Shown here: in pieces, positions 24,731-39,374 of the stretch
Numbering within the stretch: position 1 is the first letter of the stretch
Layout: each line of letters begins with the position of its first letter
IMG/VR virus record: IMGVR_UViG_3300005611_000024
Location: 1-61,071 of that record
Strand: one strand, 5' to 3'
Length of the DNA: 61,071 nucleotides
Source: a virus
Taxonomy: Duplodnaviria; Caudoviricetes
Made by a program: the position numbers and the translations under genes
The notes under the pieces: model-generated
Told to the model about the DNA's origin: nothing
Databases searched by the model: none
The model's input: only the letters and a program-made list of their open reading frames with translations

Positions 24731-25207
24731 TTAAGCAATAGTTGCTAGTGGTGAAGAAAGTGTTTCTGCTTTCCATGTAGAGTTTGTACCATCGTCAGAT
24801 ACACATGTTAATTTCACTCTTGAGTTTACAACTGTTGAGTTTCCTAAAGTTAATGTATCACCTGCAACGTCACTAGCTGGGTTAGCAGCTGCACCGCCCA
24901 TAAGTTGTAAAGCACCAAAGAAGTTAGATACTCCTGCACCTGGTAAAACGAAAGTAACAGTTTTAGCAGCACCTACAGCTGTAGTTACAAAAAATTCATA
25001 GGATACTCCTACGTTGCCTGTGTTTAACGCAGGCATATTAACAACGATATCGCCTGTGCCATCTACTTCAAATAAAGTACCTGATTGAGCTACTGTTAAA
25101 GTTGTAGTAACAGCACCGCCTGTGTTTAGTGTTGAGTTATCTACTACGACTGGACCATTGAAACCTGCATTTGAGGTGACTGGACCTGAAAATGTTGTTC
25201 TTGACAT
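24731..25207 (-). CDS. Virion structural/decoration protein
   Basis: Start MSRTTFSGPV after GGAG SD. Confidence 0.6.
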   Translation of the reverse strand: MSRTTFSGPVTSNAGFNGPVVVDNSTLNTGGAVTTTLTVAQSGTLFEVDGTGDIVVNMPALNTGNVGVSYEFFVTTAVGAAKTVTFVLPGAGVSNFFGALQLMGGAAANPASDVAGDTLTLGNSTVVNSRVKLTCVSDDGTNSTWKAETLSSPLATIA

Positions 25208-25215
25208 TATAATAT

Positions 25216-25292
25216 CTCCATACAAAGTTCAAACTTATCTATCGTGTATGCGTCTGTCGGGGCAGTTAGATAAGTTATATTGTTCCCGATGG
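25216..25292 (-). ncRNA. Structured cis-RNA downstream of capsid gene (candidate Mu-gpT-DE-like motif)
   Basis: Perfect 10-bp stem (25232-41/25267-76), inner CUG/CAG hairpin, 6-bp pseudoknot reaching the SD; family name recalled, unverified. Confidence 0.55.
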
Positions 25293-25326
25293 TTTAAATT
25301 ATACTCTTTTTGAAATTAATTTAAAG

Positions 25327-25365
25327 AAAAAAAGAAACTCTCTACGAGAGATGGTAGAGAGTTTC
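25327..25365 (-). terminator. Intrinsic terminator after major capsid gene
   Basis: 12-bp stem GAAACTCTCTAC/GTAGAGAGTTTC followed by U7 on minus strand. Confidence 0.85.
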
Positions 25366-25417
25366 AATGAAGACCTAGAAACTATGAGAAAACTAGGTAT
25401 CCAAAACACTTAGTGCA

Positions 25418-26326
25418 TTAAGCACCTTGTGAACCCCACATTCCTAGTGGGTCTGACCAACCAAATGAATATCTTTCACGGGCTTTGTATCTTACATTAC
25501 CTGTGTCGAAATCACCGTCCATAGATGTAGTTAATGGTGTTCTAACAAAATGTTTTAGACCATTTGGTACATCGGTTGTTAGGAAGTATGCATCAGTATC
25601 TGTTAGATAGTGATTAATTGCATACCCTTCAGGTATCGCACCATTAGTTCTAATAGCGTTGATATCGTTATCAGCTGTAGCTGTACGTAGCTCAGTATCT
25701 AATAAACGTGTAGCAACGAATTGTAAGCTTGGTGGGATAATTAGTTTACGTGGCTTAGCAGCAATCAATAAACCTCTTTCATCTGTCCACGCAGCTATTT
25801 GAATAACCGCATTTTCTAATGATGACTCGTTTAAGTCAGCAGCTGTTGTTTGAGTATTGCTATTTGTACCACCTGATACTAATGGGTGAGCTGTGCTAAA
25901 TAATGTAACACCATCACCACCTGTAGGACCACCTGAGAAACCATTGTTTAATACGTTAGCAGCTTTCACTTGTTTTGTGTTAGCCATTGAACGTGCTAAA
26001 GCTTTTGTGTATCTCGCAGATAAAGTATCGTAAAGGTTATCCTCTACAGCTTCTTCTGTTAGTGAGAAACCTAAAGCTATGGTTTCGTGGTTATATCTAG
26101 CTGTGAACGCTTCTTGAGCATTGTCATAAGCGATGGCAGAACCTTCGTTTTTGACAGGTGCTTGTCCAAAGCCAGATAGTTTTGTTTCTTCTTCGAAACT
26201 TCTTTCCGAAGATTCAGTTTCGTAGATTTCTTTGTGCTCTTCCCCATAACGCTCGTATTCCATTCCGAATAAAGCATTAAGGCCAGGAAGCAACTCTTTT
26301 AATAATTGAGCTCTTGAAATTGCCAT
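25418..26326 (-). CDS. Major capsid protein (Mu gpT-like)
   Basis: MAISRAQLLKELLPGLNALFG..., GGDGVTLFSTAHP, DFDTGNVRYKARERYSFGWSDP. Confidence 0.9.
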   Translation of the reverse strand: MAISRAQLLKELLPGLNALFGMEYERYGEEHKEIYETESSERSFEEETKLSGFGQAPVKNEGSAIAYDNAQEAFTARYNHETIALGFSLTEEAVEDNLYDTLSARYTKALARSMANTKQVKAANVLNNGFSGGPTGGDGVTLFSTAHPLVSGGTNSNTQTTAADLNESSLENAVIQIAAWTDERGLLIAAKPRKLIIPPSLQFVATRLLDTELRTATADNDINAIRTNGAIPEGYAINHYLTDTDAYFLTTDVPNGLKHFVRTPLTTSMDGDFDTGNVRYKARERYSFGWSDPLGMWGSQGA

Positions 26327-35710: not shown

Positions 35711-36361
35711 ATGAAAAAAGATAATTTAAAAAACTTAATGCGCTCTTTTGTGAACGCTAAAAAGAAAGTTAAGGATGTAGCATTAGACATCTTTAATGAG
35801 TTAGGACTAGATAACATTTCTAATCTTAAAACATTGGACGCTTGTAAGAATAAAGTTAAAAATGTTTTAAATGAAGTTAGAAGCGATTATATTCCAGAAA
35901 TTGCTGTACAGCATAGCGAGAATATATCTAGTGAATATAGTTTATTTCTAAATAGAGTAAAAGATGTATTTGTCGCGGATAAGAAAGGCTCTACTAAATT
36001 TACTCCTTATCAGTGTTATATGATGAGTAGAAATGATTATAGCAATCTTAGTAAAGAAAAGGCACCTACTAACAAATACAAGGAAGCTGGTGCTAGTCTT
36101 AAATCTCATATAAAACCTGTAAGGGATAAAATGAGAGAGCTAGTAGACAATACCAATAGAGAGTTAAAAGCGGAGTTAGTAGAATTGCTTAAAACTCAAA
36201 ATGGTATTGTTAGTAAGGAAAAACCTAAAACAAAAGCAGGGGAAATTAAAAAAGCGAAGGATGGACTAGATAATGCTAGAAAATCTTTTGAATATTTAGG
36301 AGACCTTGAAATGCTGGAGTGGTTAAACACTGCACCTAATAAGGATTATCGTCCTGTGTAA
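35711..36361 (+). CDS. Early hypothetical protein (basic, helical)
   Basis: 216-aa ORF flanked by TATAAT upstream and a terminator downstream. Confidence 0.75.
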   Translation: MKKDNLKNLMRSFVNAKKKVKDVALDIFNELGLDNISNLKTLDACKNKVKNVLNEVRSDYIPEIAVQHSENISSEYSLFLNRVKDVFVADKKGSTKFTPYQCYMMSRNDYSNLSKEKAPTNKYKEAGASLKSHIKPVRDKMRELVDNTNRELKAELVELLKTQNGIVSKEKPKTKAGEIKKAKDGLDNARKSFEYLGDLEMLEWLNTAPNKDYRPV

Positions 36362-38447: not shown

Positions 38448-39374
38448 ATGAGACTAAAACAAAGTGAGCTAGAGCTCAAAACACCAGAGCATATCATCTC
38501 ATTGGCAACATCAGGTATGTTAATCTCTTGTGATGTCAATGTTTGGAGTGCAACAAAACAAGACCGAACCATATCAGGCGAGGTTACATCAAGTAAGAAA
38601 GCCGACCCTAACGCGGGACGCTTTGTTAAAAACTTACTTGCAGGGGATAAACAACACAAAGACATAATCAACTACCGACAGGCAATATATAATTGGCAGA
38701 AACGCAGTACTTTTCGTTGGAACAATGCACAAGATTATCTGTTGTCAGTGGACTTGGAAAAGTTTATGGAAGAGTGGCATAAACACAAAGCAGAGTTTGA
38801 CAGATTGGTAGATAACTTTTGTATGAACTATGACACTATTAGAGGAAGTATGGCATTTGCTCAGGGTGATATGTACGACCAAGCAGATTATCCACCCGTA
38901 GAGGAAGTCAGGCGAAAGTTTGGTTGTGAACTGTATGTGTCAGAAGTGCCAGAGGGCGACCCTCGTTGTCAGATAAGCTACGACTTGGCGAATGACTTGA
39001 GAGATAATCTTAGCCGACAGCACAAAGAAAAAGTAAATTCTATTTTATCTCAACAGATAGGTAGATTGACCGAAGTTATGCAGAGTATCTCGCATTGCTG
39101 TACCTCGCACAAAGTCAAACTAAAAGATGGCACAGTGAAAGAAAAGAAACGCAAGATATACGATGAAACTTTACAAAAAGCGAAGGACTACTGCAAGTCT
39201 TACGCAAACTACGATTTAGCAGACAATGAGGATAATAAGAAACTCAAGTCAGCTATTAAACTCTTGGACGATACACTCAATGGAGTAGACAGTCATACAC
39301 TTCGTGAGAGTGATGTAGTACGAGAGCAAGTGAAATCAAATGTTGATGAAATACTTAGCAAGTTTGATTTCTAA
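38448..39374 (+). CDS. DUF3150-like helical protein
   Basis: WSATKQD...KNLL...DYPPVEEVRRKF; recalled as partner of AAA/vWA genes. Confidence 0.55.
   Translation: MRLKQSELELKTPEHIISLATSGMLISCDVNVWSATKQDRTISGEVTSSKKADPNAGRFVKNLLAGDKQHKDIINYRQAIYNWQKRSTFRWNNAQDYLLSVDLEKFMEEWHKHKAEFDRLVDNFCMNYDTIRGSMAFAQGDMYDQADYPPVEEVRRKFGCELYVSEVPEGDPRCQISYDLANDLRDNLSRQHKEKVNSILSQQIGRLTEVMQSISHCCTSHKVKLKDGTVKEKKRKIYDETLQKAKDYCKSYANYDLADNEDNKKLKSAIKLLDDTLNGVDSHTLRESDVVREQVKSNVDEILSKFDF

Follow-up and report, generated by a model that had tools for sequence, protein, structure and literature searches.

What does an RNA leader between the major capsid protein gene and the next gene of a pelagiphage do for the gene that it precedes? 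The question is raised by IMG/VR virus record IMGVR_UViG_3300005611_000024, which we analyzed over its full 61,071 bases (the window; estimated completeness, 98%). A leader region of about 85 nucleotides (nt), from 25290 to 25205 on the minus strand, stands ahead of the gene that follows the capsid gene, and an earlier note, made from the sequence alone, had read it as a pseudoknotted RNA reaching into the Shine-Dalgarno sequence (SD) of that gene. The structure of the leader is conserved and covarying, lies on the sense strand, directly abuts the ribosome binding site (RBS), and occurs in one copy per genome. The explanation that we favor, to which we give somewhat better than even chances, is that the element would act in cis as a leader, holding the ribosome-binding region within a compact double pseudoknot, and is a pseudoknotted variant of the Mu-gpT-DE motif (Rfam RF03012).

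In the window, the element begins ~128 nt past the capsid stop codon, and all of its parts are on the minus strand. Its 5′ strand, strand A (UCGGG, 25285 to 25289), pairs with CCCGA (strand A′, 25261 to 25257) in the loop of a mini-hairpin (25254 to 25265), the stem of which, CUG (25265 to 25263) with CAG (25256 to 25254), encloses the loop CCCCGA. The mini-hairpin sits inside helix B, where AACUUAUCUA (25267 to 25276) and UAGAUAAGUU (25232 to 25241) form 10 of 10 possible pairs with 25 nt between the arms. A single A separates the 5′ arm from CUG; on the 3′ side, the internal loop is the 12-nt segment ACGCAUACACGA (25242 to 25253), which divides into ACG-CAUACA-CGA and carries strand C (CAUACA, 25250 to 25245). 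Strand C is complementary to strand C′ (UGUAUG, 25219 to 25224), which follows helix B after UGAACUU and shares its last G with the start of the SD, GGAG (25216 to 25219). An 8-nt spacer then leads to the AUG at 25207-25205. The TATAAT hexamer, 10-bp (base pair) stem, CUG/CAG mini-stem, CAUACA/UGUAUG pairing, GGAG, and AUG thus stand letter for letter where the earlier note had placed them. It had missed the pairing of strand A with the loop, by which the element starts ~13 nt upstream of the 10-bp stem, and the single pseudoknot that it described is a double one.

Relatives of the locus came from three IMG/VR scans, one with the downstream protein and two with proteins related to it as queries; these returned 286, at least 572, and 240 relatives, respectively, and the best 80 of each were kept. 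Duplicates and loci short of upstream DNA were removed (those with <95 to 100 nt upstream of the start, e.g., L007, L010, L063, L068, L079, and L083), and 93 distinct leaders were obtained. One of these, L076, a mis-anchored row whose match did not start at residue 1, was dropped, and the others fall into three classes. Class I comprises 63 leaders with the window's architecture, including those of the GenBank phages HTVC023P, HTVC027P, and 023Pt_psg01. Class II comprises 23 leaders of the RF03012 type. Class III comprises 6 short leaders in which a terminator precedes a brief run of conserved sequence, ACCCGUUAGACUUAAAACGACUACUUAUUUAGGAGGG, with no obvious helix, ~60 nt before the start codon; these loci (L112, L119, L132, L133, L134, and L206) stand ahead of the same gene.

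Pairs were counted in a block alignment without gaps, for which three anchors served: the A-C ahead of the mini-hairpin loop, the G-A-C after it, and the G-A before the 3′ strand of helix B (B′). The A-C and G-A-C anchors are invariant across class I, and the G-A is present in nearly all leaders. L029 has a bulged A in helix B and lies outside these counts, hence 62 rather than 63 class I leaders. Two MAFFT alignments in register were used alongside: alignment A4, with 28 distinct rows from subgroups 3 and 4, and alignment A8 (50 leaders, 35 of them distinct, none from the window's subgroup). MAFFT alignments A2, A3, A6, and A9 were not used for pair counts, as strand A, B′, or C′ was 1 to 4 columns out of register between subgroups, and alignments A5 and A7, made with covariance models, kept register errors.

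Helix A, which joins the 5′ strand to the mini-hairpin loop from 21 to 29 nt upstream of that loop across class I, was formed in every leader counted. In the block alignment, all 5 core pairs were Watson-Crick in 62/62 leaders, with 2 or 3 pair types each (C-G/U-A/G-C, U-A/C-G, A-U/G-C/U-A, G-C/U-A/A-U, and G-C/A-U). Over 22 haplotypes, 110 of 110 cells were paired, compared with a shuffled mean of 73.5, and none of 5,000 shuffles scored as high. An exact 5-mer complement of the loop was found upstream in 63/63 leaders when each was matched with its own loop and in 30 of 567 cross-type combinations. In alignment A4, helix A was 98.8% paired, 5 of 6 pairs changed on both sides, and the covariation score was reached by 0 of 500 shuffles. 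The window's UCGGG and CCCGA stand in the same fixed register.

Helix B is 7 to 10 bp long across class I and encloses a mini-hairpin of 2 to 3 bp. Each of its 8 aligned pairs was formed in 55 to 62 of the 62 leaders in the block alignment, where the pair types number up to 6 and the haplotypes 33; counted over 46 haplotypes, 361 of 368 cells were paired, a value that no shuffle of 5,000 equaled. The closing C-G pair of the mini-stem is invariant, and the next pair is U-A in 41/62 leaders and G-C in 21/62. Alignment A8 gave 96.8% pairing for helix B, with 8 of 8 pairs changing on both sides, and 90.5% for the mini-stem. The whole structure was 95.1% paired in that alignment, against 65.8% in shuffles and 24 to 49% with slid partners, and the covariation score was 0.806 against 0.265 (reached by 0/500 shuffles); the count of double-change pairs and the count of further pair types were not separated from those of shuffles. 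Within the window's own subgroup (12 leaders), 2 pairs covary in helix A and 5 in helix B. The window itself has the invariant A-C flank, the GA before B′, and a mini-stem with the invariant C-G. Helix B also contains G.U pairs, which would be A.C on the other strand and fit an RNA of the minus strand, the sense strand of the gene.

In every subgroup, strand C occupies the positions 9 to 4 nt ahead of B′. A Watson-Crick complement of at least 5 bp was found downstream in 43/43 leaders of the three main helix C types (CAUACA/UGUAUG, GUAUAG/CUAUAC, and CCUAG/CUAGG), in 0/86 cross-type combinations, and in 6.4% of shuffles; as minor variants, one leader has AUAUAG/CUAUAU and one has a G.U pair. 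C′ ends 11 nt before the AUG in 29 of the 43 leaders, those of the window's subgroup included, and 12 to 15 nt before it in 13 more; the window, with CAUACA/UGUAUG, is at 11 nt. Covariation across related phages, on which the earlier note had made its reading depend, is thus strong in helices A and B and is seen in helix C between three subgroups. The core of its claim holds: between a terminator and promoter-like site and the SD of the next gene lies a conserved, pseudoknotted RNA on the gene-sense strand.

Covariance models extended the comparison. Model R2, built from helix B and the mini-stem with 62 seeds (the window among them), found 63/63 class I leaders and none of 19 class II and III loci; in the 61-kb genome it found one copy only, at 25234 to 25275 (36.7 bits; E value of 9e-7). 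Another perfect inverted repeat of 10 nt, at 35826 to 35870, also has 25 nt between its arms and so the same geometry as helix B; it was rejected as a second copy of the element, as it lies inside a plus-strand open reading frame (ORF; 35711 to 36361) and is unmatched by R2. Model R1, built from helices A and C with seeds from subgroups 3 and 4 only, reached subgroups 2 and 5 and 7/13 leaders of the window's subgroup, with E values of 1e-4 to 0.4 in 251 kb. Model R3, built from helix B and the mini-stem with no seeds from the window's subgroup, reached 6/13 leaders of that subgroup at an E value of ≤0.061, the window not among them. One weak R1 match (L022, 1056 to 1107; 17.1 bits; E value of 0.58) lies ~330 nt upstream of the real leader of that locus and likewise ends in AGGAGAAAAUUAUG; chance could account for it, or it could mark a leader of the gene before.

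A number of results weigh against our reading and are gathered here. The R2 score of the window is high by construction, the window being one of the seeds. R1 gave no match in the window at an E value of ≤1, and R3, run with its filters off, gave none genome-wide at an E value of ≤10 and 10.0 bits in a 101-nt search. These misses likely arise because a nested model takes the covarying strand C as fixed sequence; leaving a subgroup out remains a failed test of membership by score. Helix B was only 73.4% paired in alignment A7, where two subgroups stood 1 to 2 columns off register, and in the block alignment strand A and B′ were found by search, which favors pairing, though controls were far lower. 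The nested fold alone is ordinary: its minimum free energy of −11.2 kcal/mol corresponds to a z score of −0.53, and 52 of 200 shuffles were as stable. No −10 box stands at the right distance in 23/63 leaders, three of them directly behind a terminator.

Helix C does not vary inside the window's subgroup (12 leaders), and the SD-linked pseudoknot therefore rests on the comparison between subgroups. Taken alone it is weak, at −4.2 kcal/mol (helices A and B of the window have duplex energies of −6.8 and −9.2 kcal/mol). A 5-bp helix C is missing from 16/62 leaders: 12 leaders of subgroup 4 carry AAGCCAAGA or close variants without a clear partner, and 4 of subgroup 5 pair only CUCC with the GGAG of the SD. 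C′ shares 1 nt with the SD in leaders of the window's subgroup and 3 nt in those of subgroup 3, and in subgroup 2 a gap of 0 to 6 nt takes the place of the overlap. Of the earlier note's proposal that CAUACA pairs with a UGUAUG overlapping the SD, the pairing itself finds support, since it covaries between subgroups; the overlap with the SD is not conserved. The conserved feature is a compact knot that ends right at the SD; full occlusion of the SD is not conserved.

Chance complementarity can be gauged from the window as well. In 61 kb, only three perfect inverted repeats reach ≥10 nt with arms that are separated and lie within 45 nt, and the 10-bp stem is one of them; the other two are the capsid terminator and a repeat inside an ORF. 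With a fold energy that is ordinary, we judge the element to be real because it is conserved with compensatory change in related phages.

The earlier note had also linked the leader to Mu-gpT-DE, and this link held for the locus and failed for the window's RNA. Rfam 15 gave 0 matches at gathering thresholds in the 61-kb window. At an E value of ≤10, the region from 25000 to 25600 had 11 weak matches to unrelated families, all below half their cutoffs, with no RF03012 match among them; the best RF03012 score in the genome was 11.1 bits (cutoff, 49) at 38516 to 38563, away from the leader. The window's RNA is thus not a member of RF03012, a family found at exactly this position in related phages. 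RF03012 scored 51 to 77 bits in 9/10 class II loci tested and matched 0/10 class I loci. In all 9 loci, the last nucleotides matched by RF03012 are the AUG of the homologous gene that follows the capsid gene (the matches are at L037, 1451 to 1503; L048, 400 to 452; L080, 1451 to 1503; and in 6 more loci). The consensus runs in the order CCUG, A, a 5-bp hairpin, the 13-nt loop ACAcUAGCCAcGA, CAGG-AG, spacer, and AUG. Its outer helix joins CCUG to the CAGG of the SD (ACAGGAG), and the last three positions of the model are the start codon; the outer helix of RF03012 is therefore the SD pairing itself. Two class II loci, L081 and L148, have UCUG in this place, which would give a G.U pair with the SD.

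Both RNAs sit between a Mu-gpT-like capsid gene and the next gene, and the two designs can be laid over each other. Class I leaders and RF03012 alike run from an outer helix through a single A, an inner hairpin, and a 12- to 13-nt 3′ loop of the form AC...(C/A)GA back to the outer helix, and both tie the ribosome-binding region to the fold. The window's loop ACGCAUACACGA (12 nt) resembles ACAcUAGCCAcGA in length and in its ends AC...CGA and differs in its center (judged by eye), and AGCCA is retained in the loop of one class I subgroup (AAGCCAAGA, compared with cUAGCCAcGA in RF03012). The class I outer helix has 7 to 10 bp and does not include the SD, whereas that of RF03012 has 4 bp and does; in the window, AACUUAUCUA/UAGAUAAGUU ends 12 nt before the SD. 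The inner hairpin of RF03012 has 5 bp, whereas that of class I has only 2 to 3 bp and a loop that pairs with the 5′ strand (helix A), and the class I internal loop, unlike that of RF03012, forms a second pseudoknot (helix C). From this comparison by eye, a skeleton common to class I and RF03012 seems a reasonable reading.

The two designs, and the subtypes of class I, have been exchanged. In a quick maximum-likelihood tree built from the downstream protein, leaders of different types are interspersed, and class II requires at least 4 changes on well-supported branches; the rows of the GenBank phages are on very long branches, and the tree is unreliable there. The class I subtype, and with it the A, B, and C strands, differs even between proteins that are 98 to 99% identical (L042 compared with L034 and L039), so that the leader has been exchanged as a module between very close phages.

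In class II, the loop letters UAGCCA are also complementary to AUGGCUA at the start codon, and a loop-to-start-codon pairing was considered and not adopted. The pairing has no compensatory change, and its letters are constrained by coding; what speaks for it is codon bias alone (second codon GCT in 17, GCG in 4, and GCA in 0 of 21 class II loci; GCA in 43, GCT in 10, and TCA in 10 of 63 class I loci), which makes it a lead only.

RF03012 is an orphan motif from metagenomes that is typed "Gene; sRNA" (small RNA) in Rfam. The accession was taken from Rivas 2020 (PMC7657543), which lists the name Mu-gpT-DE. The string "gpT" does not occur in the main text of Weinberg 2017 (PMC5737381), and the motif is presumably in its supplements. 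In the literature searched, no paper combined "pelagiphage" with "pseudoknot," and the literature on Mu-like gpT or the major head subunit consisted of phage genome papers, none of which named an RNA motif. Within that literature, neither the double-pseudoknot form nor Mu-gpT-DE as the 5′ leader of the next gene is in print; unsearched journals and supplements may contain them.

How might the double pseudoknot work? The 5′ end of the leader (strand A) would pair with the loop of the 2- to 3-bp mini-hairpin inside the 7- to 10-bp outer helix B, and the 3′ side of the internal loop (strand C) would pair with C′, which ends 11 to 15 nt before the AUG, at or over the SD. Since A ties the 5′ end and C ties the strand on the RBS side, the entire leader, from its first nucleotide to the ribosome-binding region, would be held in one fold. 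That fold would act in cis on translation initiation of the virion-protein gene, limiting or timing access of the 30S subunit, and would probably shield the 5′ end too.

The last of these effects could instead be the main one. On this alternative, which is compatible with the explanation that we favor and which we regard as possible but unlikely to be the principal function, the element is mainly an mRNA stabilizer: a 5′ end locked in a knotted core denies entry to 5′-end-dependent ribonucleases, and any effect on translation is secondary. Its case begins with transcription. Upstream of the leader lies a promoter-like site (25298 to 25325, minus strand) with TTTAAA (25325 to 25320), 16 nt, and TATAAT (25303 to 25298), which together match 10 of 12 consensus positions. 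Eight nucleotides separate the −10 box from strand A, a spacing from which we infer an RNA start at ~25290, with strand A at the very 5′ end, so that the predicted first nucleotides would be paired. A TANNNT hexamer stands 5 to 9 nt upstream of strand A in 40/63 leaders, helix A is the best conserved pairing (62/62 leaders at 5 pairs) though it is far from the RBS, and the SD is free or nearly free in many leaders. Stable bacterial mRNAs with 5′ stem-loops are a parallel, as are, by topology, the exonuclease-resistant RNAs (xrRNAs) of viruses. The xrRNAs of flaviviruses and plant viruses and the window's leader are alike in being double pseudoknots with both ends tied to one compact fold; they differ in that the partners are swapped, the 5′ end of the window's RNA pairing with a hairpin loop and its 3′ tail with an internal loop, and in the bacterial host setting. 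Neither an xrRNA nor any other Rfam family matched in the window. A stabilizer, moreover, leaves unexplained the fixed distance of 11 to 15 nt between C′ and the AUG as well as the pairing of the SD by the sister motif RF03012, and the 23 leaders that lack a −10 box at the right distance, some right after a terminator, mean that strand A is not always the 5′ end.

For HTVC027P, one of the phages with a class I leader, an RNA-seq time course exists (PMC12753301). Contigs of 4 metatranscriptome runs, ~98% identical to the window, cover the downstream ORF and the leader up to 25260 to 25278, and they show presence in RNA libraries only, neither start site nor strand. Positions 25279 to 25362 are uncovered by contigs of the 4 runs, with separate contigs for the capsid gene and the downstream gene, a gap that proves nothing. 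Between the −35 and −10 hexamers is an AT-rich imperfect palindrome (25307 to 25328; overlapping 15-nt arms, 87% complementary), which could be an operator or chance in AT-rich DNA.

The earlier note had favored a riboswitch-like or protein-responsive switch that would set decoration-protein stoichiometry, and we consider a riboswitch or protein-binding operator distinctly unlikely. Here a small molecule, unassembled product, or the capsid protein would bind the junction around A, C-G, GAC, and GA and stabilize helix C, by which translation would answer to a signal. Such a gate would fit the marginal stability of helix C, which is what one would expect if it needed help to close, and the conserved junction, in which the AC before A′ and the GA(C) after it are invariant across all subgroups and the GA before B′ is nearly so. 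The SD-linked pseudoknot also recalls the SAM-II, SAM-V, and preQ1-II riboswitches and the autoregulatory operators of phages. Like SAM-II, SAM-V, preQ1-II, and preQ1-III, the window's RNA is a small leader whose fold draws a 3′ strand, at or beside the SD, into a pseudoknot with its core; unlike them, it has no Rfam match, has few invariant pocket-like nucleotides, and precedes a structural gene with no metabolic link. The T4 gene 32 leader pseudoknot, the P22 scaffolding autoregulation, and the coat operators of RNA phages share with it the structured leader of a gene for a structural or abundant protein, the free product of which could repress; the gene 32 pseudoknot lies far upstream of the RBS, whereas that of the window abuts it. 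The sequence of the internal loop is wholly different between subgroups, and the invariant unpaired nucleotides are very few for a ligand pocket; together with the lack of a conserved, mutually exclusive alternative pairing, the last point argues against a classical metabolite riboswitch. One candidate for such a switch, a hairpin between strand A and the linker (CCGG..CCGG or CUGG..CCAG), was rejected, as it occurs in some leaders of the window's subgroup only and is absent from the window and from other subgroups. Topologies of the HDV-like, twister, and pistol kinds were rejected by eye and had no Rfam match. More broadly, the pseudoknotted ribozymes and riboswitches (twister, pistol, hatchet, HDV-like, SAM-II/V, and preQ1-II/III) had no Rfam 15 match at the gathering threshold in the 61 kb, the presence of each family in the library not having been checked singly. 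Any responsiveness of the leader to a protein or a ligand is something that we infer and do not observe.

That the element is a free-standing, trans-acting small RNA, as in Rfam's typing of Mu-gpT-DE, is very improbable. The type label of RF03012 and the promoter-like site directly upstream are in its favor. Inspection of the window sequence and a terminator scan, however, showed no terminator between the element and the downstream ORF, RF03012 and the element extend into the start region, SD and AUG, of one and the same gene, and contigs from RNA libraries join leader and ORF (records 1, 9, 17, and 26). Mu-gpT-DE, too, looks like a cis-acting 5′ leader and not a free small RNA. Least credible of all is the view that the locus has no RNA function and is a DNA palindrome, a recombination junction, or chance complementarity, for although leader types are swapped between near-identical proteins, which makes the site a recombination boundary, and the fold energy is ordinary, three helices stay paired through dozens of different sequences, the G.U pairs would be A.C on the other strand, and the pseudoknot pairings are not palindromes.

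The setting of the leader is that of an HTVC023P-type pelagiphage, a group of ocean phages of very high abundance. The window is such a phage, its capsid-gene DNA being ~67% identical to that of the Pelagibacter phages HTVC023P and HTVC027P and of phage 023Pt_psg01. The ORF for the Mu-gpT-like major capsid protein (302 amino acids [aa]; 25418 to 26326, minus strand) matches Pfam PF10124 (Mu-like_gpT; E value of 3.7e-9) and PHROG 371 (major head protein; E value of 2e-22). Behind it, the capsid terminator that the earlier note had placed upstream of the RNA was recovered by the scan at 25365 to 25334 on the minus strand, with a 12-bp stem of 100% complementary arms, an 8-nt loop, and a T run.

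The gene behind the leader (24731 to 25207, minus strand) encodes a beta-rich protein of 158 aa that is spike- or fiber-like. The ORF list starts it at a TTG at 25225; the AUG at 25207-25205 fits the conserved N terminus of all relatives. Pfam and PHROG had no family for the protein, and a tblastn search of 50,697 phage records found nothing at 1e-3. An AlphaFold (AF2) model on 19 aligned relatives had a mean confidence (pLDDT) of 73 and a predicted template-modeling (TM) score (pTM) of 0.70. The best fold match in the PDB was the capsid spike of Pseudomonas phage Pa223 (9ny6_C; E value of 6.8e-5; TM score of 0.43), followed by T4 gp9/gp10-like chains and N-terminal parts of tailspikes. BFVD gave 141 matches at an E value of ≤0.001, the named ones being Mtd N-terminal-domain and tail-fiber proteins, and a protein atlas gave leads only, among them a T4 gp9/10-like N-terminal cluster at 0.87. 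The downstream protein of the GenBank class I phages is only 28% identical over 103 aa to that of the window. Compared with HTVC023P (L001, 4087 to 4605), the first ~16 residues are kept (M-[AS]-x-[TS]-T-F-x-G-P-V-x-S-x-x-G-F) and the rest is ≤28% identical, a typical picture for a protein whose anchor is conserved and whose distal part varies. The modeled fold and the BFVD matches suggest that the product is plausibly a small spike or fiber-like virion protein, and this much of the earlier note's claim of a decoration protein stands; gene order makes it plausible that the protein decorates the capsid.

If shielding of the 5′ end and control of the RBS were combined, the leader would be a dual-purpose knot new for phage mRNAs: a 5′ cap-like fold, resistant to exonucleases or to RNase E, would also gate entry of the 30S subunit and would be opened or locked by free spike protein or procapsids, with Mu-gpT-DE as the simpler, SD-paired form. 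This combination is speculative, and we rate it as rather unlikely; if it were true, it would mean assembly-coupled feedback in the ocean's most abundant pelagiphage group. At the level of the locus itself, three covarying helices before a virion gene are a strong candidate for posttranscriptional control in phages. Mu-gpT-DE gains a concrete working hypothesis, as the SD and the AUG of the next gene both fall inside its model. The two structural solutions at one locus, swapped between near-identical proteins, are a natural experiment on which features of the fold matter.

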